From the IMG/VR virus record IMGVR_UViG_3300035670_000233, positions 1 to 59,451 of that record: 59,451 nucleotides of DNA; one strand, 5' to 3'. The notes under the pieces were generated by a model. The model made no database searches. It had not been told where the DNA came from and saw only the letters and a list, made by a program, of their open reading frames with translations. Positions 15,064 through 52,550 of the stretch are shown here, piece by piece; the stretch's first letter is position 1, and every line of letters starts with the position of its first letter. The stretch comes from a virus (taxonomy: Duplodnaviria; Caudoviricetes). The translations under genes were made by a program, and so were the position numbers.

Positions 15064-15620
15064 ATTCCATCCCGATGCTCAATCTTGAGAGCACCTAGAT
15101 TGTTCTTTATATACTTGCCCACCGGATCAGAGTCAGCTTTTTCCTTTAGGCCATTGGACCACAACCAATGCAGGTACGATGCGGGGACATCCTGCATCAA
15201 TTTGCCCATGTGCTTTCCATAGGGCATCCGATCCATGTCCTTTAATCCAGCCACTACTGGAGTGACCCATTGCTTAACCTTAGAAGCAAACCCTGGCCCA
15301 GGTTGAATAATCAACGTAGACAATCCACGACCCTCGGCCAGCTTAATTTCCATAGCCACGCCGATTGATTCCTTAAATCCTGGAATATTTAGAACTACAA
15401 GATGCGTACAGACTAACATCATCTTGGAGTTATGTTCTTTCCAATATTCCCATGTCTTGGGAAGTCCACCTGATTGGGCCAATAGATGTCCGTGGGTTAT
15501 CGGTGAGTATACCAATAATCCAAACTGCATTAGGTCTGCTGCGGCTTTGGTTACTACGCGAAAACGATCCTCCCGAACGAGAGGATCTTCGTGACTGTAT
15601 GGTGTTGCTAAGTAGATCAT
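15057..15620 (-). CDS. DUF1937 (nucleoside deoxyribosyltransferase-like) fused to a DUF3820-like domain
   Basis: IYLATPYSH...YSPITHGH...ESIGVAMEI; C-terminal MPYGKHMGKLMQDVPASYLHWL. Confidence 0.75.
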   Translation of the reverse strand: MIYLATPYSHEDPLVREDRFRVVTKAAADLMQFGLLVYSPITHGHLLAQSGGLPKTWEYWKEHNSKMMLVCTHLVVLNIPGFKESIGVAMEIKLAEGRGLSTLIIQPGPGFASKVKQWVTPVVAGLKDMDRMPYGKHMGKLMQDVPASYLHWLWSNGLKEKADSDPVGKYIKNNLGALKIEHRDGIW

Positions 15621-19505: not shown

Positions 19506-20345
19506 TTAGAAGGTTGTTTCTTCTTCGGGAATCAAACTCTCCATTTCCTTGTACTCCAATCCTTTAGAGTCGCACCTAGCCTTGATGTCATTTTCAAGTT
19601 CCTTAGTGCTGATTTCACCAGCCGCCCAAGCCAGGCAGCGAGTAGCGAAGCTATTGCCGAGATTATTCTGGATATGCGATTGCATTTCGAAAATCTCTGG
19701 CCGTTTACGGTGGCGCTTAGCATTGAGCCTAGTTTCCTTCGATTGGACTTGATGATCCTTGAGTCCACGTTGTTTTGCCGACTTCATTTCCCTAGCCTGC
19801 TCCAACGCCGCCTGTGGCCCACCGCGCCGCAAGGTCGTGTACAGCTCTCGGATGTTTGTTTGGTTAATCAACCCAGCCACAACGTCTGGATAGATGTCCT
19901 TGGGCAACGAAAGCAGCATGAATCGGATCTGCACCCACCCACGCGACTGTCCGATTAGGTTAGCCGTTTCCACTTCTCCGACGCCAAGATTACGCATACG
20001 CGCAATAGCTTTGGCTTCTTGTACGATATTGAGCTGTGCACGCAGAAGATTCTCTTTGAGATTCATCGACAGCGCGTCAACGTCAGACATTGGCGGCTGC
20101 ACTTCTGCCTTAATCTCTTCTTGTTCAAGGGACCGGCAGCAGAACATTCTACGGAATCCGGCAATCAGCTTATACTTCTTGCCCCATTTAGCCTGTTGCT
20201 CAGGAGTACATTCGCATACGATAATCGGTTGCAGCAAACCATGCTGTGCAATATCACGCTGCAGATCGATTACGTCGATAGGTGCAATAGCACCACGGCT
20301 GTTGAATTCTTCGTCGATATGGATGTCAGCTATTCGTATATTCAT
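19506..20345 (-). CDS. ParB/Spo0J-like protein 1
   Basis: IAQHGLLQPIIV...LIAGFRR...NLKENLLR.QLN...HTH (ETANLIGQSRGWVQ). Confidence 0.85.
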   Translation of the reverse strand: MNIRIADIHIDEEFNSRGAIAPIDVIDLQRDIAQHGLLQPIIVCECTPEQQAKWGKKYKLIAGFRRMFCCRSLEQEEIKAEVQPPMSDVDALSMNLKENLLRAQLNIVQEAKAIARMRNLGVGEVETANLIGQSRGWVQIRFMLLSLPKDIYPDVVAGLINQTNIRELYTTLRRGGPQAALEQAREMKSAKQRGLKDHQVQSKETRLNAKRHRKRPEIFEMQSHIQNNLGNSFATRCLAWAAGEISTKELENDIKARCDSKGLEYKEMESLIPEEETTF

Positions 20346-23639: not shown

Positions 23640-24611
23640 TTATTCCTCGTCTTCGAGGGCGGCCTTGGCTTCCTCAGCTTCCTGCTGAGCCTTGCGGGCC
23701 TTCTCAGCCTTCGCTTCGGCCTTCTTCTTAGCAGCCTCAACACGCTTCTGCTCGCGCTCAGCCTCGCGCTGATCAAACGCAGCCTTCTGAACCTCGACCG
23801 ACTTCGGATCAAGGTGCAGAACCCACTGCAGGGCGACCGTTGCAGCCGCCGCCGGATCGGTGATGCCACCAATCACGCCGCTGAGGTTGTTGATGTCCGC
23901 CGCCGCATCCTTAATCTCGCTCAGCTTACGCAGGTGAGCGACAGGCGCGAACGTGGGCGGTGCAGCATCCTTGCCTGCGCGCGAGGATTCACGAATCTCC
24001 TTCGCACGAGCCTGCACTGCCGGACCAAACTCCTCGAACTTGCTCGTCATGGCGCGCTCAACCCACTCAGGAATCTCCGACGCCGGAAGCTTCGTGAGTG
24101 CGAACGCGTTAGACAGAGGAATCTTGCCCTCGTTAATCAGCTCGGCAACCTTCGGGTTGTCGATCTTGTTCAGGCCGAGACGATTCTGGATGAACTGCGG
24201 GCTAGCACCCAGGCGATTCGCCAAATCCATCTCAGTCATCATCGGATTACGCGCAAGAATACGCCGAAGCTGCTTGGCGTACTCCATCGGCTTCGTGTCC
24301 ACCTTGTGGAAGTTGGCCATGATCTGCATTTCGAGCAGACGGTCCTGATCCAGAGGACGCACCTCAGCGTTAATCTCGTCGAGGCCCGCATCCTTGGCGG
24401 CAGAGTAGCGATGCAGACCGTCGATAATCTCGTAGTACGACTGATTGGTCTCAGGATCGGTCTGAGGCCGCACGGTAATCGCACCAAAGAATCCAACGGA
24501 GCGCATCGACGCAACAAGACCCTGAAACGCCTCGCTCTCACGGTTGACAGCGCGCAGCGCAACAGGGTTCTCACGAATATCCGACAGCTTGATCTTGATA
24601 ACTTCGCCCAT
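23640..24611 (-). CDS. ParB/Spo0J-like protein 2 with charged coiled-coil tail
   Basis: LVASMRSVGFFGAITVR...YEIIDGLHRY...HTH (DLANRLGASPQFIQNRL), E/K/A-rich C-terminus. Confidence 0.85.
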   Translation of the reverse strand: MGEVIKIKLSDIRENPVALRAVNRESEAFQGLVASMRSVGFFGAITVRPQTDPETNQSYYEIIDGLHRYSAAKDAGLDEINAEVRPLDQDRLLEMQIMANFHKVDTKPMEYAKQLRRILARNPMMTEMDLANRLGASPQFIQNRLGLNKIDNPKVAELINEGKIPLSNAFALTKLPASEIPEWVERAMTSKFEEFGPAVQARAKEIRESSRAGKDAAPPTFAPVAHLRKLSEIKDAAADINNLSGVIGGITDPAAAATVALQWVLHLDPKSVEVQKAAFDQREAEREQKRVEAAKKKAEAKAEKARKAQQEAEEAKAALEDEE

Positions 24612-37592: not shown

Positions 37593-38034
37593 AATGCAGT
37601 TCTTCCGTGTTTTCCAGCAGGACGGATTCTTCTGTTTGGGTGAGTAGATTATACGTGGTTACTGCCAGTCCGGTATAATCAAGGATCTCAAATCCCACGT
37701 CGTATGAACAATCGTCGCGGCGGGTAACGATGTTGAAAGCCGGTGTTAAGATATAGCAGGTCGATTCTGCGCCAAGATGATCTATTAGGGTTAATTCCTT
37801 ACCTGCGGTATTGGTTAGGAAGGTCTGGAGTGCCGTTACTTTAGTTCCGATTAATCCTCTAAATTCAAACTTCCTAGTAGTAATCGGAACCCTACCTACC
37901 GGAATAGCTATACGGTACTCTCCCGCGCGCGTAGTTCTAACTATGGTCTTGTGGTCCCTAGTTAGGGTATTGCCTAACAGAGGATTAGGTAGCTCTATGC
38001 TGGTCGCTGGGTCGGTGCAGGTTAGGGTAATCAT
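37582..38034 (-). CDS. distal-tail-like protein (paralog A)
   Basis: Directly after tape measure; LPNPLLGN...GE...FEF.GL...LQTFL. Confidence 0.6.
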   Translation of the reverse strand: MITLTCTDPATSIELPNPLLGNTLTRDHKTIVRTTRAGEYRIAIPVGRVPITTRKFEFRGLIGTKVTALQTFLTNTAGKELTLIDHLGAESTCYILTPAFNIVTRRDDCSYDVGFEILDYTGLAVTTYNLLTQTEESVLLENTEELHYEH

Positions 38035-41000
38035 AATGTGAGTGTTCCGCGCCTAATTTCACGCTTAATCGCATGGCCGATTGCTACGGCGTCTACACTA
38101 GCTCGACCACTACTATTAAGAGAAATATTGATGTCCCCGACGTTGGTGGTCTTGGCTGAGCCACCAGAGTAGCGATTAGTATTCATAGCCACTAGTTGAC
38201 TGTAGAATCTCTTACTGGCAACGGCATTGACCACGAACTCACCTGGGCTAAGCAGAGTTGGGATAACATCCCTGCCGGATGGAATAATTCCACCGAGTGC
38301 TCGCTTCACGGGAATATCTGACGTTGAACTAAGATTTCTTACAAATTCTGCCGTCCTCTCGAACTCTTTACGAATTTCTGCCAGCATGATCAATGTAGAC
38401 TTTGTGACTTCCTTGGTAGCCTCGTCAACAGCTTTCGTCCCAAGTCCGACATCGACCTGCAGCCCCAACATTTCCTTATTAAGTTGTAGAATCTGATTCT
38501 TAGCTTCAGCTATCTGCTGTTCTAGTTTCTGCCTGGCTTCAGAGGATAGCGAAGCTGGAATCTGAGCTTCATTGAAAATCTCGTTCAGTTTTTTGTTCCA
38601 CTCATCCCAACCAAAAAGGTCCGTAATCCATGTTCCAACTCTAGCGAATTCTTCCGTTGGAGTAGACTCTCTCCACAATGTGCCCTGTCTTCCAGCGGCG
38701 ATGAGTCTTTCTCTCAGTAATTCCCAGCTCTTTAGGCGAGCCTCATCGGCGGCCAAACTAGCATTTGCGGCCTCTATTGATTTTTGCAACTTTTCGATAG
38801 CTTGCTGACCAGCCTCTAGTGGCAGGATTTTTTCGTCCTGTTCCATTCGACCAGAGATACGATCAATTACCAGTTGTTGCCAGCGATCCAAAGCAGCGGT
38901 GTCCACACCTGGAGTCAACGTCTCAAGCAAGCTCTTGTACTCACCAGATACCTTAGCCCACTCCTCAGCTACTTTGAGAATATCCTCACGCTTACCGCCT
39001 TTATCAAGAAGATCTTTTAGTTCTTCGTCTACCTTCTCGAAAGACTTGGAGTAAAGATCCAATTCCACTTCCTGCTTACGCGCAGTAGCTAGTTCAAGCT
39101 CTTTCTGTTTGCGTTCCTCGATTAAAGCCAACTCTTGTTCTCTGAGAGCAGCCCGTGCTTCGTCTTGAGCACGCTTCACAGACTTGATTAAATCGAATTC
39201 AGCTGACTTGATTACTCCGATGTCTTCCAGTTTCTTATCCAACTGCGCTTTTTCAAGTGCAGCGGCCTCGTCAAAGTCTTGGAGGGCAGCTTGGGCTTCC
39301 TTTAGCTCCTGATTCTTAGCATAGACAGCCTCGCGTCGGTCCTTGCCCCTAGTCTCCCTTGTAGTAGTAGCAATCTCTTCTTCGATCTTAGCTACCGCCC
39401 TAACTAATTCGCGCCTCTTAAGGGCATCTTCAGCTGCTTGCTTGCCAGCCTTACTCTGCAGGTCGGCTACTTCTTCTTCGTGTTTTAGGCGAATATCATT
39501 GATCTGCTTAAGAAGCGACTGAATTTCGTTTGTGGCCCCTATAATGCGTTCGGGAGTAGCATCTTCTTCATTTCTTACCCGCCGAAGTTCAGCAATCCTA
39601 CTAAGGATTAATTCAATTTGCTTCTGGGCATTATCAGCTCCAGCAAAAGTAAGGTCAAATTGAAGGTCGCGAACAACATCCTTTGATGAATCATTGAATT
39701 CTTTTATCTTGTCCAGAGATTTGTCAATTTCGGAGATACTGTTCTTAATTACATTTACGGTATTACGGAAGGCAGATTCGATATCTTCGGCCATCAGCCC
39801 AACATCAATCTTCGTACTTTCAATGCTCTTACTTAGAGCGGTATCCATCTGAGTGACTGCTCTGCGAGTAGCAGCAATCTCTCTACCAATAAGCTGAGAA
39901 AGGCTACTGGTTACCTTCAAAGCAGCGGCCGATCTAATTTCGGCCAGTCGCTTTGCGTGTTTTTCAGCTTCACGTTGCTGATTTTCCAGATCGTCGAATA
40001 CCTTAGACTGTGCCTTGTAGTATTCCCGCGTAATCGCAGTCAACGTAACGAAGGCCACTGACAGTGCTACTACCGCTGCTACGGCGGGATTACTAAGCAT
40101 CATCAACTGTCCAAGACGCAGGAATTGGCCTAGGCGATATAGTAGTCCCACTATAGCAGCGGCTGCCACTGGGGCCGCAGCCACCAGCGTATAGAGTGCG
40201 CCCTCTACCAATGGAATTCTACTTACAAAGAGTGAGATAGCCTGTACAGCATCTTGCCCTAGGTCCACAGTGAAGAATTGTTTTAATTCCTGTAGAGCAA
40301 TTCGATTCTTGATGCCCGCATTTTGCACCATGATGTCTACGGCAGTGGTAAATTCCTTGCTTGAATTCGTGATTAGGTCAAGAGCATTGGCTGCTTTTTC
40401 GCCACCCTCACCCATGAATACCATCGTACCGCTTACGCCGCGAATACGATTAATGTATTGATAGATTTCAGTAGACGATCCATTGGTGGCTTTCTCAATC
40501 TCTCGAATAACCCCGAGCAATCCGAGAGCCTTAACTGCTGCTTCACCTGACTCGAATCCTAGCGAACGTAGAAGTTCCTTAGTCTCATCCGTGGGCTGGA
40601 TGAGCTTAATCATAATGCCGCGTAGCTGTGTGGATGCTTCATTATACTTAATACCAGCGATTGTCATTTGAGACAACATCGCCAACACTTCCTGATAACT
40701 GGCACCCAGCTGACCGGCGATAACCGTGACGTTACCGATTGTGCTGGCTAGGTCTTGCAGTTGGAATCGTCCCAAGTCAACAGCCTTGAACAAAGCTCCA
40801 GAAATCTCTGCTGACTTCGACACTTCCAAATTGTAGGAATTGAGCACCGAAGATAGGAAATTGACCGCATCAATCTGTTTGCTGTTAGTAGCGATTGCTA
40901 GCTTATTGGCTTCCTCCATGAAGCCAATAATGTCAATGCCTTTGCCCATTTGGTTGGATAGAGCTTCATAGGCGGCAGAAGCGGTATCAAGAATATCGAA

Positions 41001-41672
41001 TCCAAATGAAGCTGAAACTCCCTGCAGGGCTTCGGCCCAGGCTCTAGTGCCAGAAACAGCATCTTGGGACAGTGTTTGGATTTGACCAATCTTGATTACT
41101 AGTTCATTGGCTTGAACGACACCTTCCCTAAATCCGCTGATTAAATCGGCTGCAAAGCGGTGGGCTATTTGTACGCCAAACAACCGCATCATTGATCGCC
41201 AGCTAAGGTGCAGTTCCTCACTGGCCGTCCTAGCCTGCTTGGTGCTGCTAGTGAGGCTATTTACAGTCTGGATAGCCTGCTTTGAACCTCCAAGAGCGGC
41301 CATTTGATTATTTAACTGCGCCACGCCTTGTGCGGCCAACATTGCGTTGGCTTTAACTGCCTGTAACTGGGCAATCTGCGCGCCGATCTGTTTTGGTGGA
41401 CCGGCGATCCCACCTGCCGCATCCAAGTTCTTTTGGCGGGTAAGCTCTGCCACCATTTGCCGTAGAGCATGAGCATTAGCAAGAGCTTGCTTTTCTTGAA
41501 TTTTAATTGCTGAATTGGTATTAAGAATCTCTGTCTGAGCCTTAGACAGAGCTTTGGTCATATTGTCATAGTGGACCGTGGCAGCATTTAGAGCCGCAGT
41601 TAGACTCCTAGAGTCCCCACGAATCTCTACGGTATCCCCTTCTTCAAAGGCGGGTATGAAAGGATTATTCAT
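38031..41672 (-). CDS. tail tape measure protein
   Basis: ~1210 aa helical; TP901-type core (AYEALS...LFKAVDLG...ASTQLRGIM), C-terminal ALGG...LSPGEFVVN; start moved to MNNPF (GGAG RBS). Confidence 0.92.
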   Translation of the reverse strand: MNNPFIPAFEEGDTVEIRGDSRSLTAALNAATVHYDNMTKALSKAQTEILNTNSAIKIQEKQALANAHALRQMVAELTRQKNLDAAGGIAGPPKQIGAQIAQLQAVKANAMLAAQGVAQLNNQMAALGGSKQAIQTVNSLTSSTKQARTASEELHLSWRSMMRLFGVQIAHRFAADLISGFREGVVQANELVIKIGQIQTLSQDAVSGTRAWAEALQGVSASFGFDILDTASAAYEALSNQMGKGIDIIGFMEEANKLAIATNSKQIDAVNFLSSVLNSYNLEVSKSAEISGALFKAVDLGRFQLQDLASTIGNVTVIAGQLGASYQEVLAMLSQMTIAGIKYNEASTQLRGIMIKLIQPTDETKELLRSLGFESGEAAVKALGLLGVIREIEKATNGSSTEIYQYINRIRGVSGTMVFMGEGGEKAANALDLITNSSKEFTTAVDIMVQNAGIKNRIALQELKQFFTVDLGQDAVQAISLFVSRIPLVEGALYTLVAAAPVAAAAIVGLLYRLGQFLRLGQLMMLSNPAVAAVVALSVAFVTLTAITREYYKAQSKVFDDLENQQREAEKHAKRLAEIRSAAALKVTSSLSQLIGREIAATRRAVTQMDTALSKSIESTKIDVGLMAEDIESAFRNTVNVIKNSISEIDKSLDKIKEFNDSSKDVVRDLQFDLTFAGADNAQKQIELILSRIAELRRVRNEEDATPERIIGATNEIQSLLKQINDIRLKHEEEVADLQSKAGKQAAEDALKRRELVRAVAKIEEEIATTTRETRGKDRREAVYAKNQELKEAQAALQDFDEAAALEKAQLDKKLEDIGVIKSAEFDLIKSVKRAQDEARAALREQELALIEERKQKELELATARKQEVELDLYSKSFEKVDEELKDLLDKGGKREDILKVAEEWAKVSGEYKSLLETLTPGVDTAALDRWQQLVIDRISGRMEQDEKILPLEAGQQAIEKLQKSIEAANASLAADEARLKSWELLRERLIAAGRQGTLWRESTPTEEFARVGTWITDLFGWDEWNKKLNEIFNEAQIPASLSSEARQKLEQQIAEAKNQILQLNKEMLGLQVDVGLGTKAVDEATKEVTKSTLIMLAEIRKEFERTAEFVRNLSSTSDIPVKRALGGIIPSGRDVIPTLLSPGEFVVNAVASKRFYSQLVAMNTNRYSGGSAKTTNVGDINISLNSSGRASVDAVAIGHAIKREIRRGTLTL

Positions 41673-42327
41673 CTTCAAATTCTCCACCGGCTCCAGTTGG
41701 GATGTGTAGTCCACCAAACATTTCTTGAGCTACTAAAGCAGGTACCGTACGCTTCAATTTACGCATTTCAGTTTTGAACTGCTTCATGAAAGTCTTATTA
41801 GCCCTGCCTAAGCTATCCATAATCTTAGGTGACTTCCAACTATTGGCAGACCATCTAGGGCTAACTATCCCAACTTCATGCAGAGCATGCTGTAAAGTAC
41901 CGATAGTAACTCTGAAGGTGAATACTGCTCGTTGTGGGCTACCGTAGTAGATTCCCATTTGCTTAGAGGCTAATAGGTAACGGCCAACAGCTAGTCCAGA
42001 GGAAATCGATTTTGTATCGTGATCAGGATCATGGAAGTTTTTGGCATACCAGATGCCTTCTTTTGTTCTAGCCCGCCTAACCTTGCCGGTTCCAATGTAT
42101 CCTTGCAAACCGGCCACTTTAAGAATCCTACCCATAGGCACCAGAGTACCGATAGACATGCCAGTATCTTCGTGGCAATCACGCATTAGAAGAAACATGG
42201 TCCGTAAGGCTTCGCGGGCACAGCGATCCCACGAAGCACTTACGGATGCATGGACGCGCTTGGTAATGCGTGGCCCCTTGTAGTGGGATCGCTTACCTTT
42301 TATTTCAATGGTGGCAAACTCAGACAT
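41665..42327 (-). CDS. basic hypothetical tail-module protein
   Basis: 220-aa ORF between chaperone and tape measure. Confidence 0.55.
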   Translation of the reverse strand: MSEFATIEIKGKRSHYKGPRITKRVHASVSASWDRCAREALRTMFLLMRDCHEDTGMSIGTLVPMGRILKVAGLQGYIGTGKVRRARTKEGIWYAKNFHDPDHDTKSISSGLAVGRYLLASKQMGIYYGSPQRAVFTFRVTIGTLQHALHEVGIVSPRWSANSWKSPKIMDSLGRANKTFMKQFKTEMRKLKRTVPALVAQEMFGGLHIPTGAGGEFEDE

Positions 42328-42527
42328 TCTTTTCTCAGCTTATCTTCTTCCCAGTCTCTAAGTTGCCCATAGGCTATGATGTTACACATCACCACGTCGT
42401 TATTCGTATCCCATTCGCTGCGCACACATGGGGGTAACACTCCCAGCCTCTCACACGCTCTCCATATCGCATACTTCATTGTCCTGAATGGTGGAAACTG
42501 GCGCGTCTCAGTCCCTCCACCATCCAC
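42300..42527 (-). CDS. tail assembly chaperone, frameshifted (T) portion
   Basis: Lies in the -1 frame just after the chaperone stop at AGT TTT TAA. Confidence 0.65.
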   Translation of the reverse strand: MDGGGTETRQFPPFRTMKYAIWRACERLGVLPPCVRSEWDTNNDVVMCNIIAYGQLRDWEEDKLRKECLSLPPLK

Positions 42528-42529
42528 GG

Positions 42530-43018
42530 TTAAAAACTTTGTAGAGCCGCCTCCATGTTATCGGGGGTTAGCCCATTCACTTGATTGATTGCTAACTGAA
42601 TCTTGTTTTGTTCAGCCTGAGTAAATCCGGCCTGAGTTAGTTCCTCTCGGAAGTTACCCCAGGTATCAGGATTATTCATGTCAACCGTTTCCCACTCCAG
42701 GTTCTCTGTAGCCTGTAGCGAGACTAATGAAATCCAGTTGGCCTTTTTAGTAGCCCAGGCATCAATGGCATCTTTGAACTTCGGATCGTCAAAGACTGCC
42801 ACTTTCTGCCCACTGGACATAATCCTGATGGGTGGCGTCGGCTGTGGGAGTAGCTTTGCCACAGCCGATTCATCCACCACTGCCTGCACCGTAATCTCGA
42901 CGAAGAATGGAACCTTCCTGCCAGTCGGTTTTCCCTCGACGATTTCCGGCTGTTCCCCTCGTGGGAACCGCAGGGTTTTCTTGTGCACAGCGTATAATTT
43001 TTGACCATTCAGCTTCAT
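42530..43018 (-). CDS. tail assembly chaperone (G)
   Basis: Follows major tail protein and ends in a slippery T-run. Confidence 0.7.
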   Translation of the reverse strand: MKLNGQKLYAVHKKTLRFPRGEQPEIVEGKPTGRKVPFFVEITVQAVVDESAVAKLLPQPTPPIRIMSSGQKVAVFDDPKFKDAIDAWATKKANWISLVSLQATENLEWETVDMNNPDTWGNFREELTQAGFTQAEQNKIQLAINQVNGLTPDNMEAALQSF

Positions 43019-43065
43019 GGTACTTTCCTTTTTGTATATCTCTAACTATAACTTATAGTTGATTG

Positions 43066-43596
43066 TTAAGACTGGGCTTGACGCGTCACGATTGCCTTCG
43101 TGGCATTGCACTTACCTGTGCAACTAATCGTGCCAGCACGCAGGTCATGAGACAGATCCTCATACCGGAAGTCCGGCAGAACAATCGTTTCCATGTCACC
43201 GCAGCCACTCGGACTCGGGACGTTCTCAAGCACAATGTCCACGGCGTAAGGACGACACGCGTCACTGTCCGTAGAAGTCCACCCAGCAGCCTGTCCAACC
43301 TGCTTCAATGCATCTTCGATGGAAGGCGGTGCATCGCTGGACAACGAAGACCCTTGAATATAGTCCCACTTAAAGTCGAAGCGGACATCCATAGGCTCTT
43401 CATCACCATTACGAACCTCGTCAAGAAGACCACGGTCCTTCATATACTCACGGGTCACCTTCTCCGACCACGTAAGATTACCCTCCCCGATCTTAATCTC
43501 CAACTCGTTAGCTGGAGTTGCTCCATCACGCACCTTAAGCGTGACATTCTTGAGGTCAATCTGTGCAAATGCAGTGATCCACGGCGTGCTATTCAT
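43066..43596 (-). CDS. major tail tube protein
   Basis: 176-aa beta-rich protein before the chaperones; N-terminal PWITAF leader. Confidence 0.75.
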   Translation of the reverse strand: MNSTPWITAFAQIDLKNVTLKVRDGATPANELEIKIGEGNLTWSEKVTREYMKDRGLLDEVRNGDEEPMDVRFDFKWDYIQGSSLSSDAPPSIEDALKQVGQAAGWTSTDSDACRPYAVDIVLENVPSPSGCGDMETIVLPDFRYEDLSHDLRAGTISCTGKCNATKAIVTRQAQS

Positions 43597-43597
43597 C

Positions 43598-44065
43598 TTA
43601 GTTTCCTTCGGCTAGTTCTACCTCGTACCCGAATTCTACAGTTGTATGTAGAATCCTTTCTGCAGTCCCTTGCTTACCATAGTCAGTTATACGTATAGGG
43701 CTACCGTCCCGATTTAGACAACCTAAATGGGCCGGCACTTGTTCTCCGTAGCTAAATAAAGGTATAGTCGTAGCTTTTGCAGCGATTATTCCTGACAGAG
43801 TGTGTACATGGTACAGGTCAACGGACTGTGCTACCTGTACTGGGCACTGAATCAGAACGTCTACTCCTACTGAGGCATACCATTCATCCCTAGTAGCTAC
43901 TTGGAAGATTGGACCAAGTATGCGTACCTCGTACACTGGAATCTTTAGATTCTCGAAATCACGAGGACGCTCATTTTCAATGATCATCTTAAAGGTGGCC
44001 GTCTCGGCACCCTTGAAATAATCATTGATAGATGCTTTAATCCATCTGTTCCAGTTGGGATTCAT
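43598..44065 (-). CDS. tail terminator-like protein
   Basis: 155 aa immediately upstream of tail tube; positional call. Confidence 0.55.
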   Translation of the reverse strand: MNPNWNRWIKASINDYFKGAETATFKMIIENERPRDFENLKIPVYEVRILGPIFQVATRDEWYASVGVDVLIQCPVQVAQSVDLYHVHTLSGIIAAKATTIPLFSYGEQVPAHLGCLNRDGSPIRITDYGKQGTAERILHTTVEFGYEVELAEGN

Positions 44066-44898
44066 GCCTGGGTTTCCATTGGGTCAATGCGTACATCCGG
44101 ATTTTCGGGATCATCTTCGGTGGTGTAGTCTCCGAATGGTTGATACTCTGTACCGAAGGGATTATCAAGACTGTACTCATCTGTCGTAGCTTCTGGATCT
44201 GGTACCCCAGGAGACAAGAAACTGGTTATGTACTGTATGTAGTATCTATATTGGCTATCCTGTCCCTGCTTAAAGATTACCCTTGCAATCCTGGGTTCAA
44301 GAATCGTCTTTTGCCAGATACCATACTTCACTCCAGCCACTTCGTTAAATCCGCTCAGGGTATAGGTCCCCGCAAATGAAGGGGTAGTAGGTCCAATGTG
44401 CTCCTCCAACACAAAAGATTTAAGGAATCTGCCAACAGAAGATTGAACTCGGTTACACTTTCCAGTAAATCTAATGGTGCCCTGCCTAAGATCAAAAGAA
44501 GAATCCTCAACTCGGAAGTCTTTTAGTTCCAGATATTCTGCCTCAACTAGAGTGCCGGAACATGTAGGAGAATGTAGAATCAAAATATTGACTGAGTATG
44601 GCTCACATTCGTCGGAAGACGTAGAGGTCCAAGCAGCTGCATCACCAGTCTTCGTAAGGGCTTCTCGGATGGACGGAATAGATCCGTTGCCTTGCAAGTA
44701 TTCCCACATACAATCAAAACTAACGTCTACTGCTTCTTCGTCGGCTCTCCTAACGTCGTAAAGCAGCCCCTTATTCTTGGTATATGCGAGCGGCCTCTTT
44801 TCAGAAAATGTAACGTTACCTTCACCTAGGACCACTTCCACTTCAGATCCACTCCCGTCACGTATGAAGATGGAGGCGTTCTTGAGGTCAATAATCAT
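44062..44898 (-). CDS. tail tube paralog with C-terminal extension
   Basis: Clear similarity to 43066-43596 (IDLKN..RDG...GEGN.T.SEK...GLL..VR..DEE...W.Y.QG...PY.V.I...DFR.ED...DLR.GTI..TGKCN). Confidence 0.75.
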   Translation of the reverse strand: MIIDLKNASIFIRDGSGSEVEVVLGEGNVTFSEKRPLAYTKNKGLLYDVRRADEEAVDVSFDCMWEYLQGNGSIPSIREALTKTGDAAAWTSTSSDECEPYSVNILILHSPTCSGTLVEAEYLELKDFRVEDSSFDLRQGTIRFTGKCNRVQSSVGRFLKSFVLEEHIGPTTPSFAGTYTLSGFNEVAGVKYGIWQKTILEPRIARVIFKQGQDSQYRYYIQYITSFLSPGVPDPEATTDEYSLDNPFGTEYQPFGDYTTEDDPENPDVRIDPMETQA

Positions 44899-45314
44899 GA
44901 GCCACTCTCCGTGGGAACAATCATTCCAGTTGTTTGCTTAACCAACAGCAAGAAAGAGTTATTGGTTTCCGCCTCCACCATCTTCTCAATGTCGTAAATC
45001 TGTGTACCGATAATCACATGATCTTCTTCTTTGAGGCTTGGAGCATCCGCCTTGTCAATGATGATTAGTCGGCTATCAACTGAACGTGGATTGGCAAACT
45101 GAAACTGTCCACCGGATAACATTCGGGCATAGCGAAAGAGCGTAGTTACTGACCCTACGATGGCTCGTCTAATCTCAATGCGTGTATGTTCGGTGACTTG
45201 CTGTCCGGTCTTTGGATCGACTACTGGATCATCTACCTGCAAAATGGTTATTGGCATACCGAAGTCATGCTTGAGTCGGTATGTCAGGTTCTTAATTTGT
45301 TGCAGGATATTCAT
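44895..45314 (-). CDS. head-closure/neck protein
   Basis: FGMPITI...DPKTGQ...D.VIIGTQIYDI; directly after capsid gene. Confidence 0.55.
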   Translation of the reverse strand: MNILQQIKNLTYRLKHDFGMPITILQVDDPVVDPKTGQQVTEHTRIEIRRAIVGSVTTLFRYARMLSGGQFQFANPRSVDSRLIIIDKADAPSLKEEDHVIIGTQIYDIEKMVEAETNNSFLLLVKQTTGMIVPTESGS

Positions 45315-45320
45315 GGGCTA

Positions 45321-45347
45321 GCCCGCCCAGGGATTGCCTGGGCGGGC
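45321..45347 (-). terminator. GC-rich hairpin after the major capsid gene (terminator or translational element)
   Basis: GCCCGCCCAGG-N5-CCTGGGCGGGC perfect 11-bp stem; no U-tract. Confidence 0.5.
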
Positions 45348-45364
45348 ATTACCTCCAGAATCAT

Positions 45365-46750
45365 TTAGCCAAGCACAGGAACCGCGAGGTTGCTATTCAG
45401 CACGGCCACGCCGAGCAGATTATCAACCGTCACGCGGTGACCCTGAGCCTTACCGTCGTAGGTAATCACGACACGGACGGCCATGCCGTTATACACCGCA
45501 ACGTAGGCACGAGCACCAGTGCCAGGCATCGGAGCCGCCAGCGGCCGCGAGACGAGGCCGATAGCATCCCGATGGAACAGCATGTTGTAGTTGCCCGCGG
45601 GACCAATACCCATCAGGGTATCGTTAGCCAACAGCGCAGCCAGAGGGCGATCCAGCATAGTGGCCGTCGTGGTGGGAGTACCGATAGCAGCATACCGAGC
45701 CGCCGAAGCACTCGTCCCGAAGGACACAAGCTGCCCGCGCTTAGGAGCCACCGTGAACCCATCGTGGGCAATGGCCTTGGCATAGCCAGCGGCATAACCC
45801 GCAACAAGGTCCACAGCGCCAGGCGCATAGGCCGTGATTACCGCATCGTTAGCAACCGCACTACGCAGACCAGGACTGACCGTCAGCTGGGTCGGCGTGG
45901 CGTTGTTAACGGCAGTCACGAACTGCGGGGTCATATCGCCCGCAATCGTCACCCACCAACCAGCGGCGCACTCGCCAGCACCGAAACCGTCGCAGGCGAT
46001 AACCGTCGTACCAGCCGCGTAGCCAGCCGACAGATTAACTGCACCGGCAGTCGTGGTGTTACCGGCCACGATGCTCGGAGTGTTCTGCGCCATCAGGATG
46101 TTCATCCCGAAACGCATCCCAAGGATCGCCTGCTTGACAGCCAAGCCAGCATCACCGACCTCATTGGCCTTCACCAACGCGTCAGTATCCAGAACGTCGC
46201 CTTCCGACGCACTCGAAAGCGCGAGGATACGTCCGTTCATGGGGATCTTGAGATCATTGGCCTTCTCGCGTGCAGCAACCAACGTGGACTTGCCCACGCC
46301 GGTACCGAGCTTGCCAACGCAGTTCCCTAGGAACTGATACACCTGACCAGCGATGATCTGATCCACACCTTCGGCGTGGGCGATCAGCGCGGGACGCAGG
46401 TGGTAGTTCAAGAGATTCGTGAATCCCTTGCTCAGTTCACCGTCCTTGATGATGAAGCTGATGTGCAGCCACTGATCAAGGGGCACGGGCACCTTGGTCG
46501 AGGAAGCCGTCTGAGTATCAACCTCATCGTCGTCGGTCTTACGCTTCATTTCGAACGTACCAGGACGATGAGCATTGACAACATCGCCGTACTCGGCAAT
46601 CTTGTCCTCAAAGTCACGGTACACGAGATTCCCGTAGACCATGTTGTTTTCCAGAATCATCAATGCCTCCTGCGCCCAAACTTCAGGCACAAGAGGATCG
46701 TTGTCGTTGAACGCAGTAACAAACGTAGCAATGATCATCGCAGTCTTCAT
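45365..46750 (-). CDS. major capsid protein (P22-coat-like, HK97 fold)
   Basis: PEVWAQEALMILENNMV..NLVYRDFE...GDVV; FHRDAIGLVSRPL; D.LLGV; follows the scaffold gene. Confidence 0.88.
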   Translation of the reverse strand: MKTAMIIATFVTAFNDNDPLVPEVWAQEALMILENNMVYGNLVYRDFEDKIAEYGDVVNAHRPGTFEMKRKTDDDEVDTQTASSTKVPVPLDQWLHISFIIKDGELSKGFTNLLNYHLRPALIAHAEGVDQIIAGQVYQFLGNCVGKLGTGVGKSTLVAAREKANDLKIPMNGRILALSSASEGDVLDTDALVKANEVGDAGLAVKQAILGMRFGMNILMAQNTPSIVAGNTTTAGAVNLSAGYAAGTTVIACDGFGAGECAAGWWVTIAGDMTPQFVTAVNNATPTQLTVSPGLRSAVANDAVITAYAPGAVDLVAGYAAGYAKAIAHDGFTVAPKRGQLVSFGTSASAARYAAIGTPTTTATMLDRPLAALLANDTLMGIGPAGNYNMLFHRDAIGLVSRPLAAPMPGTGARAYVAVYNGMAVRVVITYDGKAQGHRVTVDNLLGVAVLNSNLAVPVLG

Positions 46751-46758
46751 GTTCTTCC

Positions 46759-47598
46759 TTACAGGGTTTGACCACTAGCACGAGCTTCGCGGTATGCCTT
46801 AGGATCGGATTTTGCCAAATCGGCCAACTTGCGGGTGGCAGGACTCCCACCAGGCAGCCGAAAGACTCCGCCTACGGCCTTACCGACAAACAGATTAGCA
46901 TATTCTTCCATTTCACTCATCTTTTTGACGGCATCCTTGACAGGAAGTACCAACTGTACATCCTTTCCGCCGCCATCTTTACTCATAATTGTTACCTTAG
47001 CTGTAAATTTCCCAGTAGGCTTACCTTCCCCATCAAGGTCTTCGGCTAGTTGCGTTTGCGGGCGCAACAAAACGACGAGTTGATTTGGATTGTACGCCTT
47101 ATGCTCCGCTGCCGAAGCAAGAATATCGCTTGTGATTACTTGCTCCGTAAAACGATTCTTCCATCCATCGCGTTCCTGAGTGAGCTTCTCAGTAGCCTTA
47201 CGCGCATCAGTTTCGAGCTTCTTCTGCTTTTCAGCAGCCAACTGTTCCTTGGTGAGAAGCTCAGTGCGCATAGACTCGATTCTAGAATCAAGCTCAGAGC
47301 GTTCCTGCTCAGTCAACTTCGCTTTGGTGCGTAAAGTTTCGAGTTCCGTCAGAGCGTCGTTCTGCTGCTTCTGCCACTTCTGGCGTTCAGCAGCGATCAT
47401 TTGATCGACCTGCTCTTTGGTAATGGCCCCGGCTCCACCAGCGGCTCCACCAGCGGCTCCACCAGCGGCTCCACCGGCGGCTGCTCCGGCTGCTCCGGCT
47501 GCTCCGGCTGCTCCGGCTGCTCTGGCTCCACTAGCGGCTCCACCAGCATCTTCAAACGCCGTAATCCACGTTGCTTGAGTATATTCTTCGCTTTGCAT
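46759..47598 (-). CDS. capsid scaffolding protein
   Basis: Low-complexity G/A N-terminus, ITKEQVDQMIA, long coiled coil, Y.NLF...GG, C-terminal DPKAYREAR. Confidence 0.8.
   Translation of the reverse strand: MQSEEYTQATWITAFEDAGGAASGARAAGAAGAAGAAGAAAGGAAGGAAGGAAGGAGAITKEQVDQMIAAERQKWQKQQNDALTELETLRTKAKLTEQERSELDSRIESMRTELLTKEQLAAEKQKKLETDARKATEKLTQERDGWKNRFTEQVITSDILASAAEHKAYNPNQLVVLLRPQTQLAEDLDGEGKPTGKFTAKVTIMSKDGGGKDVQLVLPVKDAVKKMSEMEEYANLFVGKAVGGVFRLPGGSPATRKLADLAKSDPKAYREARASGQTL
47427..47548. repeat. 9- and 12-bp tandem repeats encoding AGA/AAGG in the scaffold
   Basis: GGCTGCTCC and CCAGCGGCTCCA units read directly. Confidence 0.85.
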
Positions 47599-47600
47599 GA

Positions 47601-48050
47601 TTAACTCACCCTTGTTAGTCTTACCGCCGCGGTTTCATATAAATATGGCTGAATACGAATCCATGCTTCCCAGCTGGGAATACCATGGAGAACGTTAATC
47701 GCCACGCGTGATCGGTCGTATGTTGACTTTATATTCTCATATTGAAAAGATGACATGAATTGATTCTCAAATTCACGTTCTGGATCAACATCGTCCAATA
47801 ATCTTACAGCCAGAAGAATGGTAGCTTCCTTAATAGCTTCGGGGACTTCTGTATCTCCGCCGCGCGGAAATTGAAGCTCCTGGCTGCTATCGGTCTTATC
47901 GCCCAAGAAATTGAGTGCGTCAATCTTCTTAGTAGAGATATTTAGTGCCTTAGTACGAGTAGCCTCATTAGCAGAATCCCAAGGGAGACTATTAATCAGA
48001 TTGCCTGCAACATAGGCAGCGGCTTCTTCGAGTGTTACATAGCTACTCAT
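47601..48050 (-). CDS. head-tail connector/adaptor protein
   Basis: SYVTLEEAAAY...W...KAL..ST..ID.L.F.G.K...Q.LQFPR...VPEAIKEA; start moved to MSSY. Confidence 0.7.
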   Translation of the reverse strand: MSSYVTLEEAAAYVAGNLINSLPWDSANEATRTKALNISTKKIDALNFLGDKTDSSQELQFPRGGDTEVPEAIKEATILLAVRLLDDVDPEREFENQFMSSFQYENIKSTYDRSRVAINVLHGIPSWEAWIRIQPYLYETAAVRLTRVS

Positions 48051-49722
48051 CTTTTTCCGCCTCCCCACTCTTTGGATCTGGGTCTAAATCTTTGGCCCCA
48101 CGTGAAGCTGGATTAATTAATTTGCTTTGGGCTGCTAGTGTAAGCATTATCCTGTCCGCATGATCCTTCTTAGCTTTGGTAGCCTCAGCTTCATTAAGAC
48201 CAAGAATCTTTGCTCCGGTACCCGTACTTAAAAGTTGGTTTTCAATTGCATCGGTAATCATGTCCAACGTTGCATATCCTAGTTCAGACCCATCAATTTC
48301 AACCAGGATGGCATCGAGCTTATCCTTAGGGAGCTTATGCCCTATGGAGGCAGTCACAATAGCCTTAGCCAGCTCCTTACGCAAAAGCTTACTTTCTACA
48401 GAGTAGAGGGTCTTAACTAGCTTCTCTGATTCTTCGTATCTCTTGGTATCTGACTTTAGACTATAGTCCTTGGGATAGCTGATCGTAACCGTATTGCTCT
48501 CACCTACATAGAGTGCCCAAAGCTCAACAAATTCGCGCTCAATATACTGCAGGACTAATCCAATATAGGAAAGACCTGCCTCAAGAGTACGCTGACTAAC
48601 TTCTTTAGCTTCCGCGCTTTCTCTTTGTGGTTCGAGATTAGCGATATTCAGTCCAATGATTTCACGAATTTCTTTCCGGAGTTCACGCTGCTTTTCTAAA
48701 CTCGCAGTTATTGGATCAGTAGGTGGCCCAATGAAGTCAGGCTTCTCCAAGCCTTTGGGGTATCTGCGTCCAGTAGCTGCCCCAATACGTACTTCGTTCA
48801 TCTTGGCTACTGTTTCTGCTGCGGCACTACCGGCTTCCGAAGTATCGCCCTCAGTCTTTACGATGTCATGCAGTGCTCGACGAAGATGCGTAAGCTCAAC
48901 AGCAGGATCATACTGTTCAGTGTAGAAGGTAAAGTTGGCCTTCATCGAGTAGATCAAGTCCGATGAAGCTAGGTTGAGAAGGGCAATCTGGTATCCGTCA
49001 ATGTTCTTTAGCAGGCTATGTGATAACTCCGCGATAATCAACGGAATCCTGTTGAGCTTGAGTACGGTTGTCTGGTCTGTTTGTTCAACGCCCGCGGAAT
49101 TAAAGAAGCGCACTCTTACTTGCCCCTCCTCCAGAGTCAGAAGGCGGTATACTGCCACTCGTTTGGAGGTAAGCCCGTACTGTTTGTCTACTTCATCTTC
49201 ATATTCACGCAGAAGGACTGCCGTGAGAATCCCGTTCTCATAGGTCCAGGATAGGATATTTTCAGCCGTATAGACATAGCAATATGGGTGCAGACTTTGT
49301 GTGTCAGCTTTAGTTTGACCAGCAATCATTGGCATATCAACGTAGATGCCTACCTTACCCATACCAAGAAGCTCGATTAAAACATCATCCCCAAGGAACT
49401 CCATGATACTGTGTCCTTGGCGATCTACTCCCAGATGCTTCCCAGCGATGGTTTCTTGGAAAAGTGGAGTGCCACCGCTTCTAACAGCATCTGCTAGACG
49501 TTGATAGATCGCATTCTTAATCTCTGTTAGCGCGGCCTCAGCGTGTGCTGGGCAGTATGTAATGCTGAGGCGATCAGAGAAATCCTTTGCTTCTTCTCGT
49601 TCGGAAAACTTAATCAGGTACTTCTCAACGAACTTGGTACCGCCAGTAAGGATATACCGATAACGTTCCCAAGTGGTAAGGGAGTTTGCATATTCTGGAT
49701 GTTGTAGCTGCATTATGCTCAT
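48043..49722 (-). CDS. portal protein
   Basis: HPEY...WERYR...GG...YL...RE...RL; G.VGIYVDMP; follows terminase; start moved to MSIM. Confidence 0.85.
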   Translation of the reverse strand: MSIMQLQHPEYANSLTTWERYRYILTGGTKFVEKYLIKFSEREEAKDFSDRLSITYCPAHAEAALTEIKNAIYQRLADAVRSGGTPLFQETIAGKHLGVDRQGHSIMEFLGDDVLIELLGMGKVGIYVDMPMIAGQTKADTQSLHPYCYVYTAENILSWTYENGILTAVLLREYEDEVDKQYGLTSKRVAVYRLLTLEEGQVRVRFFNSAGVEQTDQTTVLKLNRIPLIIAELSHSLLKNIDGYQIALLNLASSDLIYSMKANFTFYTEQYDPAVELTHLRRALHDIVKTEGDTSEAGSAAAETVAKMNEVRIGAATGRRYPKGLEKPDFIGPPTDPITASLEKQRELRKEIREIIGLNIANLEPQRESAEAKEVSQRTLEAGLSYIGLVLQYIEREFVELWALYVGESNTVTISYPKDYSLKSDTKRYEESEKLVKTLYSVESKLLRKELAKAIVTASIGHKLPKDKLDAILVEIDGSELGYATLDMITDAIENQLLSTGTGAKILGLNEAEATKAKKDHADRIMLTLAAQSKLINPASRGAKDLDPDPKSGEAEKDE

Positions 49723-49723
49723 T

Positions 49724-51367
49724 TTAACCTCTAAAGTCCCTATTACCACCAAGTTGAACGCCTAGGGCTAAAGCTATCTCGGCATAGTTTCTAGCATGTG
49801 CATAGTGGTCAGGATTCTTTCCAGACTCGTATCTTCCCACAGGATTTCCGTCACGATCCTTATCGTAGATGCGAGTAGGAGCGCAGATATGCTCGCGGTA
49901 TTCTACGTCCACATCTGTGGGGAGGGTAATAGTGCGCTTCTTGAAGCGGCCCAATGAAAGATCCAGCCAAGACGTACGATTAACCTGTACGCTCAATTCC
50001 TCTGGATTATCCTTAATAAGCTTACCAGAGACGCCTTGGGCATATTTGCACATGCGAACAGAGTGCAAGAATCTCTTTGCAAACTCAAGAGAGCTACGAG
50101 TCTCAGGTTCAATATCAATCACGCAGTACCCTACCCGAAATTCGAGCATTAGTTCGTCAAGATCATGAAAGTTAGGCACCCGTAGGAATTTAAGAACGCG
50201 GCAGGAGGCCAGAGCATTAAGGTCGGCTTCAAAGACCCGATGATTAAAGTTCCACTCATCAATCTCTACGTGGAGCACCTTGCCTACGTCAACACCCATC
50301 GTAACGAAGGAATTAGAAGAAGGACGGACATCGCAATTATGCCCGATACAGGCAGTGATTTGTTCATCTGTGACCTTTCCACCCTTGACAACGTGTGGCA
50401 ATCCACCCTTACTATTATAGAGTTCCTGCTCATCGGTAGGGTCTTGCTCAGCTTTGAAGCACAACTCGGCAATCTTGTAGGGAGGCAGAATGATAGAGTA
50501 CAGCTGATTAATATAGTAGCTAACAATCTCCGTGCCTTGTACGGTAGGCACCCATTCCGCATTGCCCTTTGCCAAGAAAGTCTTCTTGGCAGCATGATCC
50601 AACTTGTGCTTGCACTCTTTACAGAAAATGTAGGATTCTTTAATCGCTGGATCTTCAAAAGAATCCCCACAGATGTGCAGACAATCGGGGAAAACTAATT
50701 CCGTTAAGCGGGAGCAGTGTGGACATTTGAACATGTAGTGGCGCTGATCGCCTTGCTTAAAGTAGACGTTAATGCCAAAGTTCTCAATGGTCGGCGTAGA
50801 AATCATATAGACCTGGCGCTGCAATTGTCCAGACATGCGCTCCATGGCCAATGTGATATTCTCAAACACCATTTCGTCTACTTCATCGAAAACAATAAGG
50901 TTAGCCGGAATTGATTTTAGCTGCGAACGGCTTCGACTGCCTCGAATGAATAGATTAGCTGATCCAGCGCGTTTGTGCCCGATGTTCTTTACGTCAGTGA
51001 ATAGGCTAGCAAGGTGCGGAGATAATTCCAGAGCGGCATCAAACCGTGATGTTGAAAAATCACGCGCATCGGGATGCAGGGAAGGTAGAATGTACAATAC
51101 GTTATAGGCATCAATATCAATGGCCTTGAACGTCTTGTTGAGTGCGATTTCAGTGAACGCCATCTGCGCCGCTTTTTGCGCGACCATTTGCTCTGCAATA
51201 CACTCCTGCGGTTCTTCGGCCCACGGATGGTGTTCGTAGGACCATCGACCTGGGCAGGGTGGACCCATAATCCGGTATTCCTGTGCCCATTTGCCGGCAG
51301 TCGTAATGGACTTCCGACGTAAGCCGGAAGCCACGCGCTGCTTCAAGAGTTGGGCCAAGTCTTCCAT
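49724..51367 (-). CDS. terL: terminase large subunit (GpA-like)
   Basis: KAAQMAFTE, LKSIPANLIVFDEVD, ISTPT, CPHC/CKEC, MGVDVG, PDHYAHA. Confidence 0.9.
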   Translation of the reverse strand: MEDLAQLLKQRVASGLRRKSITTAGKWAQEYRIMGPPCPGRWSYEHHPWAEEPQECIAEQMVAQKAAQMAFTEIALNKTFKAIDIDAYNVLYILPSLHPDARDFSTSRFDAALELSPHLASLFTDVKNIGHKRAGSANLFIRGSRSRSQLKSIPANLIVFDEVDEMVFENITLAMERMSGQLQRQVYMISTPTIENFGINVYFKQGDQRHYMFKCPHCSRLTELVFPDCLHICGDSFEDPAIKESYIFCKECKHKLDHAAKKTFLAKGNAEWVPTVQGTEIVSYYINQLYSIILPPYKIAELCFKAEQDPTDEQELYNSKGGLPHVVKGGKVTDEQITACIGHNCDVRPSSNSFVTMGVDVGKVLHVEIDEWNFNHRVFEADLNALASCRVLKFLRVPNFHDLDELMLEFRVGYCVIDIEPETRSSLEFAKRFLHSVRMCKYAQGVSGKLIKDNPEELSVQVNRTSWLDLSLGRFKKRTITLPTDVDVEYREHICAPTRIYDKDRDGNPVGRYESGKNPDHYAHARNYAEIALALGVQLGGNRDFRG

Positions 51368-51715: not shown

Positions 51716-51924
51716 TTCTTGCTCGGATGAGCTTTCTTCGAGCGGAAAACACCAATAATAAGACTAGCTGCTGTGATTAGTCCATACACACTGGTCAGCA
51801 GGTCATTGAAGATCGGGATGGCCGTATCAGCTTGTTCCTTGGACATCACTCCGATGGTGGCCAGAACACCAAATACTACTGGAACAACCTTCATACCGAC
51901 CGAAAGAATCAATTCACCGTTCAT
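51712..51924 (-). CDS. holin-like protein
   Basis: Two hydrophobic helices and basic tail RSKKAHPSKK; start moved to MNGE. Confidence 0.6.
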   Translation of the reverse strand: MNGELILSVGMKVVPVVFGVLATIGVMSKEQADTAIPIFNDLLTSVYGLITAASLIIGVFRSKKAHPSKK

Positions 51925-52550
51925 TGTGCGCTCCTGGGTTTTACTTCGTGGCTTGGAAACTCTGACCAAGCATTTTCGTCGTTAAAACTGAACCAAACCT
52001 GATCGCCTCCAAAATACTTTGGATTCTCCTTCACTGGAATAGTGTAATCCTCAGGCCAATAGCACCAATCCAGAGGAATCCAAGCCTCATCCGTTTCTCG
52101 GCAATAAGTAGCCCAAGCATGACCAGCTCTTTTACCCTCAGACTGCACGTATCCAGCTGCTACTCGAATACGCCAAGCCGGCATACCTAGATTTCGCAGA
52201 ATCGAAACGATTAAAATCGCACCATCTTCACAATCACCTTGGCCCAACTTCGTTGTCTCAGTAGGAAATAGCCAAAATTCTGGAGTACCAAGAGTAGTGT
52301 CGGCAACATATTTGATTCTTTGCCGCACAAATTGATGTACTGCGTAGGCCATATGGTCTGAGCGTTGATTAGGTAGGCTATATAGCGGAGCGAAACTGTC
52401 AATGTATTGCTTAATCACAACATCATCAGCCCAAATGAACCTTCTCAGATCCATGGGGAATCGCTCATCCTTACTTGGAATTGGCCTGCCTGCGTAGACC
52501 AGATCCCTTTTGGGATGCTTTGTATTCCAAAATGCTGGGCCACGCATCAT
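51921..52550 (-). CDS. transglutaminase-like cysteine peptidase
   Basis: IKYVAD...EFWLFPTET...GDCEDGAIL..S.L...GHAW...WIPLD (Cys-His-Asp). Confidence 0.85.
   Translation of the reverse strand: MMRGPAFWNTKHPKRDLVYAGRPIPSKDERFPMDLRRFIWADDVVIKQYIDSFAPLYSLPNQRSDHMAYAVHQFVRQRIKYVADTTLGTPEFWLFPTETTKLGQGDCEDGAILIVSILRNLGMPAWRIRVAAGYVQSEGKRAGHAWATYCRETDEAWIPLDWCYWPEDYTIPVKENPKYFGGDQVWFSFNDENAWSEFPSHEVKPRSAQ

Follow-up and report, generated by a model that had tools for sequence, protein, structure and literature searches.

Why should four virion proteins of one phage begin with nearly the same short peptide? The question is raised by a Caudoviricetes sequence, IMG/VR virus record IMGVR_UViG_3300035670_000233, analyzed here over 59,451 bases (the window). 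A first-pass annotation had noticed an N-terminal leader, [TP][WF][IV][TP]AF, on the putative scaffold, major capsid, tail tube, and tape measure proteins and had proposed that it was cut off by a protease during maturation. All four N-termini lie where that annotation placed them, on the minus strand: a 15-residue scaffold leader, MQSEEYTQATWITAF (47554-47598), a 14-residue capsid leader, MKTAMIIATFVTAF (46709-46750), a 10-residue tube leader, MNSTPWITAF (43567-43596), and a 9-residue tape measure leader, MNNPFIPAF (41646-41672), followed directly by EDA, NDN, AQI, and EEG, respectively. The junctions are thus TWITAF↓E, TFVTAF↓N, PWITAF↓A, and PFIPAF↓E (the arrow marks the end of the leader). 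The strict motif occurs four times in the six-frame translation of the window, always at these structural-gene starts, and a looser pattern, [WFY][IVL][TPSA]AF, likewise finds exactly the same four sites in six frames. Each start has a Shine-Dalgarno-like sequence 5 to 14 nucleotides (nt) upstream, and the tape measure ATG overlaps the stop codon of the open reading frame (ORF) upstream. No alternative start codon separates the motif from the conserved mature part in any of the four genes, which speaks against true starts downstream of the motif. As first reported, the WITAF codons differ between the scaffold and tube copies (TGG ATT ACG GCG TTT versus TGG ATC ACT GCA TTT).

The proteins that carry the leader are not homologous to one another. 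The scaffolding protein (46759-47598; phrog_206, E = 7.5e-07) consists of the leader, a Gly/Ala-rich low-complexity linker, and a coiled-coil body. The P22-type major capsid (coat) protein (45365-46750) matches phrog_283 (E = 4.5e-55) and the Pfam P22 coat family PF11651 (E = 1.5e-18; 67.3 bits against a cutoff of 24). Position 8 of the PF11651 profile aligns with coat residue 21, which means that the P22 coat has no counterpart of the leader. The tail tube protein (43066-43596) had no sequence-family match in PHROG or Pfam profile searches and was identified from its AlphaFold2 model (predicted local distance difference test [pLDDT], 91.3) and Foldseek matches in the PDB, which are tail tube proteins (PVC, HFTV1, Mu, P74-26, and 80alpha; probability 1.00, template modeling [TM] scores of 0.4 to 0.53). 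In this model the leader is predicted to be disordered (pLDDT of 55 for residues 1 to 10 versus 88 to 98 in the body). The 1213-residue tape measure protein (38031-41672) matched 11 PHROG tape measure families (best E = 7.5e-24). A tube paralogue (44062-44898) lacks the leader and begins MIIDLKN, which aligns just past the motif, in agreement with the first-pass annotation; such a second tube-like ORF is present in both the window and L001 (related loci are labeled L, and genomes G).

How widely is the leader conserved? A profile scan of viral contigs returned 554 relatives, 80 loci of which were retained; scanning bacterial genomes provided 20 loci, many of them inside chromosomes of Thermoguttaceae and Planctomycetaceae, and two more scans added 55. 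Scoring of 8000 candidates yielded 916 coat homologues at E ≤ 0.001. Leader statistics were drawn from the 117 homologues with a PExW anchor among 120 matches listed, with positions taken at fixed offsets from that anchor. The coat leader has a median length of 13 residues and the consensus K-[VIA]-W-x-[TP]-V-[YF], followed by A-N-D-N-D. Among the 117 coats, position -1 is mostly Tyr (42) or Phe (41), with His in 7; position -2 is Val in 62 and Ala in 21, position -5 is Trp in 66 and Phe in 16, and position +1 is Ala in 82. To judge from these predicted N-termini, the leader is a short, often basic start plus a hydrophobic core (Trp or Phe at -5, Val or Ala at -2, Phe or Tyr at -1), fused directly to the mature N-terminus.

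Coat and scaffold nearly always bear a leader in related viral contigs and Planctomycetota prophages. A scaffold homologue was found in 95 of 100 related loci, and the scaffold homologues of relatives bear a leader like that of the window. Tube, tape measure, and portal leaders are variable among relatives, and many tubes are leaderless. Tape measure leaders were seen only in the window, L001, L003, L035, and L048; portals carry the genome's own leader in L048 and L055, and the window's portal has none. The idea of a protein-level extension added to non-homologous virion proteins is supported by this conservation. The expectation that the motif itself would recur in relatives held in part: the leader is widespread, but there is no single fixed motif, and its sequence is genome specific.

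Leaderless homologues define where the leader ends. Tube homologues either carry a leader that ends right before A-Q-I-D-L-K or begin M-A-Q-I-D-L-K with none; among 150 cluster representatives of the tube family, 95 are leaderless (Met plus the residue after the motif) and 34 are extended, and leaderless tubes occur in 11 of 72 related loci. Two of the 117 coats are leaderless and begin M-ANDL.... The coat, scaffold, and tube of L070, a contig of 4,156 bases, are all leaderless and begin at +1; the only further relative of this kind that we found is on a 22-kb contig. At the level of predicted N-termini, then, the boundary is exact, with leaderless homologues beginning at the residue right after the motif.

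Two other features of these protein families were observed. In every scaffold homologue (window and L001 to L198), a low-complexity linker of 20 to 60 residues lies directly after the leader, before a conserved FTQEQVN... body; the linker is acidic, and its composition varies by genome (Gly/Ala, Pro/Ala, Asp/Gly, or Pro-Ala-Gly-Asp repeats). Tubes of L046, L051, L055, L071, L077, L083, and others contain an inserted domain (...GYA..T..VDGF...) that resembles a repeated insertion in the coat (45365-46750 in the window), and this shared domain places coat and tube ORFs in one BLAST cluster.

Within a genome, leaders of non-homologous proteins are alike over 6 to 12 residues, whereas between genomes they differ widely. 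We compared coat and scaffold leaders from 73 dereplicated genomes using an alignment-free best 6-mer score and 10,000 permutations. The mean score was 23.9 for same-genome pairs versus 15.1 for cross-genome pairs, and 0 of the 10,000 permutations reached the observed mean. The scaffold from the same genome ranked top for 24 of the 73 coats and among the top three for 41. For example, ...ADARPIAH is found on both coat and scaffold of L076, matching leaders read IQLTYC in L028, IRQAYF in L073, and ...LLAY in L046 and L077, and RxW[YF]G occurs on the coat, scaffold, tube, and tape measure of L035 and L048. All Planctomycetota prophages have leaders ending in ...C[YF], and further matching examples come from L168, L176, and L180. 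Where coat and scaffold leaders have identical residues, the codon is the same in 76 of 163 cases versus ∼65 expected from independent draws; this near-independence argues that the similarity is kept by selection on the peptide and not by recent DNA copying or gene conversion. An all-versus-all comparison of ORF N-termini in six genomes was noisy: 4 of 3160 pairs in the window scored at least 26, versus 9 of 3160 for internal-segment controls (the window tube was outside the ORF set), and only G012 and G013 yielded leader groups.

The carriers in any one genome therefore have a common leader sequence, this sequence changes from genome to genome, and selection is at the protein level. The simplest reading of leaders shared within genomes and divergent between them is that a single common partner reads all of them. 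The leader probably marks its carriers for one common processing or assembly step, and we are highly confident that the leaders are a real shared recognition tag.

What, then, reads the tag? We favor a mechanism in which the leader would act as an assembly pro-peptide fused to scaffold and coat and, in some genomes, to tube, tape measure, and portal. Removal would take place between the aromatic residue and the Ala or acidic residue that follows, on the model of staphylococcal phage 80alpha, and the cutting enzyme would be the phage's own C39-like cysteine peptidase (12972-13439, minus strand) and not the host protease Prp. Proteolytic removal as such seems fairly likely. The whole scheme of a removable pro-peptide cut by the C39-like peptidase is put forward tentatively. 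We propose with a little more reserve that this putative papain-fold protein might be a protease dedicated to virion maturation in a large, uncultured lineage of siphophages, trimming both head (scaffold, coat, and sometimes portal) and tail (tube and tape measure) proteins.

The first-pass description of 12972-13439 as C39-like was supported. Cys27, His136, and Asp149 are the same in every homologue compared (21 of 21 and 22 of 22), and a Gln precedes the Cys (Q...C). A structural-atlas model of the peptidase (predicted TM score, 0.78) matched seven C39, C39_2, or C70 clusters at TM scores of 0.59 to 0.65, and hhalign against 11 genuine C39 domains returned a probability of 73.7% (E = 2.9e-5), aligning Q....C with the C39 Q....CG and His with His. 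The protein begins at Met17 (coordinate 13439) of a 171-residue ORF (12972-13487), a start favored by the conserved MKLLTQ.GP.C in relatives and by a ribosome-binding site. Database gene calls (P0271 and P0272) begin at Met28, one residue past the catalytic Cys27, and are corrected by this analysis.

The peptidase ORF is a core gene in a comparison of the window with four complete relatives, and the compared genomes of the lineage contain no other conserved predicted peptidase. Of the related viral records, 18 of 18 with a length of at least 55 kb contain it, against 3 of 17 below that length, and it also occurs in 5 of the 8 host genomes that carry prophage relatives. One host, G001, has three prophages and exactly three peptidase copies, and each copy is separated from a coat gene by 28 to 33 kb, much like the spacing in the window. 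Beyond this coat lineage, the search returned 11 viral loci and no independent lineage: both new records of at least 55 kb bear the same coat family, and five others are fragments. Searches with tblastn found no cultured relative for the peptidase or the tube, and the nearest cultured coat relatives have <30% identity. The nearest of these, Vibrio phage MAR10, lacks both a shared leader and the C39-like peptidase, which fits the proposed pairing but is weak evidence. Based on its conservation and its C39-like structure and profile matches, the peptidase is the best candidate processing enzyme, and its link to the leaders is circumstantial.

Several observations weigh against the assignment of leader cleavage to this peptidase. 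The profile-profile probability for C39 is just 73.7%, and the peptidase had no Pfam match (five members at E ≤ 10, PF03412 and PF13529 included, and the window protein at E ≤ 0.01) and no NCBIfam, PHROG, or PDB sequence match. It was not found in 3 of the 8 host genomes carrying prophage relatives. Because it accompanies the lineage as a whole, its co-occurrence with the leaders has no discriminating power. The gene lies outside the virion module, among genes for nucleotide metabolism and DNA processing (NYN, VRR-NUC, methyltransferase, dGTP diphosphohydrolase-like, and ThyX). Partial Mantel tests for co-evolution of peptidase and leader gave no signal above control genes (r = 0.28 for leader divergence against the peptidase versus 0.59 for portal, 0.46 for TerL, and 0.32 to 0.44 for others). 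Position -1 of the leader is not strictly aromatic, as Gly, Cys, Ser, and His also occur. Cleavage after Gly-Gly is the hallmark of C39 peptidases, and the window leaders have no Gly-Gly end. Furthermore, the 80alpha scaffold leader is reported to be required while its cleavage is dispensable, so a leader can act uncut (PMC5744158). Complex prediction for the peptidase family with the leader-bearing tube scored 0.00; controls were not run, and the result is evidence neither way.

The surroundings of the peptidase gene have features of their own. Beside it on the minus strand is a nucleotide-metabolism cluster (13436-14080, 15057-15620, and 15617-16489) that encodes a dATP/dGTP diphosphohydrolase N-domain plus ribosome-modulation-factor-like domain (PF18909 and PF04957), a DUF1937/nucleoside 2-deoxyribosyltransferase-like protein, and ThyX; the cluster might point to modified DNA. 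Two peptidase paralogues are present in G032 (loci L237 to L242; L204 and L206), which is 112 kb long and estimated to be 100% complete. This genome has many ORFs with repeated N-termini resembling homing-endonuclease families, and no second leader class was seen in it. In L213/L216 (G026 contig C60, ∼107.6 kb), a canonical C39 ORF (PF03412 and PF13529, E = 4.6e-8) lies ∼14 kb from a phage-type peptidase and shares the contig with prophage L096.

Two other explanations are serious rivals. The first, which we hold to be possible though rather improbable, is that the leader is retained and docks all its carriers to a shared partner, which could be a chaperone, the portal or assembly nucleus, or some other phage protein; the peptidase would then do an unrelated job such as host takeover, counter-defense, or lysis. 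The precedent is again 80alpha, in which assembly needs the scaffold leader and not its cleavage and for which the authors propose a common chaperone (PMC5744158). Docking would also suit the within-genome likeness, which spans 8 to 12 residues and so extends beyond most protease subsites, the placing of the scaffold leader at the tip of a long low-complexity linker, as if it were tethered bait, and the location of the peptidase gene in a replication and nucleotide-metabolism block. Of the genes compared, the portal tracks leader divergence most closely (partial r = 0.59), but this may merely reflect linkage within the structural module. The leaderless tubes, coats, and scaffolds are harder to reconcile with a permanent tag, as they begin exactly at +1 and imply that the mature proteins work without it. 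Likewise, the conserved -1 and +1 positions resemble a scissile bond, no linker separates the leader from the N-arm in the coat, and a chaperone gene was not found in the conserved core.

The second rival keeps cleavage but assigns it to a host protease other than Prp, exploited by the phage as 80alpha exploits Prp, a precedent described in PMC5744158. We regard it as unlikely. It would account for a virion module with no protease gene and for leader classes common to phage groups, such as ...C[YF] in all Planctomycetota prophages and viral relatives; even two prophage types in one host chromosome (L087 versus L092/L094) both end in CY. Yet leaders differ strongly between related phages, upstream of -3 even within one host chromosome, and no host substrate with the motif is known, although host proteomes were not searched for it.

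Prp itself, which cuts the 80alpha leader and the ribosomal protein L27, had served as the model in the first-pass annotation, which allowed for a host-derived protease; the Prp route did not hold for the candidate hosts. These are Planctomycetota genomes with prophage relatives and may not include the host of the window's own phage. Prp (PF04327) was detected in 0 of 5 such genomes by a search that was positive in Bacillus subtilis, Thermotoga, and Lactococcus controls. L27 was found in all five, begins MAHKKGQGSS with no N-terminal extension, and in none of them carries the leader motif. Neither the window nor any of 14 related viral records encodes Prp. The Prp route is thus ruled out both for the candidate hosts and as a phage-encoded function. 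The available part of a Prp review makes no mention of Planctomycetes.

The virion genes are encoded on the minus strand, starting from terminase (49724-51367) and followed in turn by portal and head-tail adaptor (47601-49752; phrog_145 and phrog_477), scaffold, P22-type coat, three small neck/tail genes (one being the leaderless tube paralogue), tube, a chaperone-like ORF, ORF 41665-42327, and tape measure. As noted initially, no prohead protease is visible in the head module: there is none between portal and coat, and the S78, ClpP-like, and S49 families (PF04586, PF00574, and PF01343) were each found in 0 of 5 genomes (the window and four relatives with terminal repeats). At 47601-48068, where a protease would usually be encoded, the adaptor-like gene matches head-tail adaptor phrog_477 and so is not a protease, and clustering of 1545 ORFs from 101 loci recovered no conserved protease in the virion module.

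The second cysteine peptidase named at the outset, a transglutaminase-like protein encoded upstream of the terminase (51921-52550, minus strand; PF01841, E = 1.3e-11), is very improbable as the leader enzyme. It lies outside the five-genome core and has a homologue in 1 of 100 related loci, of which 60 have a terminase and 95 a scaffold; this single occurrence comes close to ruling it out as the general leader enzyme. ORF 41665-42327 (minus strand) has a DTGMS motif and is present in 33 of 45 loci spanning chaperone to tape measure. We rejected it as a retropepsin-like aspartic protease: its model (pLDDT 76) is helical alpha/beta with no PDB structure match (best E = 2.4), the Asp of DTGMS is Glu in L041 and L084, and it had no Pfam, PHROG, or PDB sequence match. 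Lastly, chance likeness of short motifs, miscalled starts, or a 5′ segment recently copied as DNA from one gene to another is next to negligible as an explanation, given that 4 of 4 occurrences are at gene starts with ribosome-binding sites and no downstream alternatives, that the leader is conserved in many relatives, and that the permutation test (0 of 10,000) and randomized codons oppose it.

Elsewhere in the window, an SNF2-type helicase lies between two ParB-like paralogues (ParB_N plus HTH_ParB; 19506-20345 and 23640-24611, minus strand), and the ParB pair is kept in all five compared genomes. Four relatives of 64 to 68 kb, G006 (L001), G012 (L040), G013 (L042), and G014 (L046), have direct terminal repeats and are probably complete although rated 69 to 74% by CheckV. 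The window (59.5 kb, rated 64%) may be nearer to complete than estimated.

Leaders of this type, together with their enzyme, have so far been known from staphylococcal phages that borrow the host Prp, and their purpose there is still unclear. The same design now appears in a lineage that is unrelated to these phages, uncultured, and widespread, and whose hosts, where identifiable, are Planctomycetota without Prp; the design extends to tube, tape measure, and portal. With tagged substrates, natural leaderless variants, and one conserved candidate peptidase, the purpose of such leaders becomes directly testable. If the C39-like protein is indeed the enzyme, it would represent a new protease class in phage maturation, with one tag-and-protease pair serving head and tail assembly. 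Because each genome has its own leader, the lineage would then also offer orthogonal leader/protease pairs. A literature search, at the level of paper listings and not as proof of absence, returned no description of a C39-like or papain-like prohead protease or of this leader.

How does the arrangement compare with known systems? As in P22, the coat is a PF11651 member with a separate scaffolding gene just upstream, but here the coat has an extra N-terminal leader and the virion has a siphovirus-type tube and a 1213-residue tape measure. Classical prohead proteases (S78/HK97 gp4, S49/lambda C, and ClpP-like) trim several virion proteins during assembly, as is proposed by analogy here. Under T4 gp21, internal proteins share a short N-terminal capsid targeting sequence that is cut off. 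Unlike in those systems, the protease families concerned are absent from the window and its four complete relatives, and tail proteins are tagged too.

The C39 leader peptidases of bacteriocin export systems (PF03412 and PF13529) have the job of removing short N-terminal leaders. Like them, the window protein appears papain-like, with Gln...Cys and then His...Asp in the same order. Unlike them, it is a stand-alone protein of ∼155 residues that is not fused to an ABC transporter and has no Pfam match. Its putative substrates are cytoplasmic virion proteins, whose leaders end in an aromatic residue and not in Gly-Gly, with W[YF]G in a minority.

The closest parallel is 80alpha, as described in the two reports cited here. 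Its capsid and scaffolding proteins lose 13 to 14 residues at F↓A, and the same motif is on the major tail protein of another phage (PMC5744158); the consensus is MLxx(D/N)LQ(F/L)F'A(S/H)KK (PMC9405229). In both systems, as far as those texts describe 80alpha, a short leader is common to non-homologous capsid and scaffold (13 to 14 residues there and a median of 13 here), the junction is similar (Phe↓Ala there, Phe or Tyr before Ala or an acidic residue here), the motif reaches a tail protein, and a classical prohead protease is absent. The proposal of an analogous system with a different motif therefore stood as regards the form of the leader (length, Phe or Tyr at P1, and Ala at P1′) and fell as regards the Prp route in candidate hosts. 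The leader sequence is unrelated to the published 80alpha-type consensus, with junction type and length alone alike. The candidate hosts have neither Prp nor an extended L27, and there is a phage-encoded peptidase candidate instead. The leader here is genome specific and co-varying and does not mimic a conserved host substrate, and it is also found on tape measure and portal. We conclude that the procapsid proteins of this large uncultured lineage, and variably its tail proteins, bear a genome-specific tag whose nearest functional counterpart is the 80alpha leader but which does not depend on Prp.

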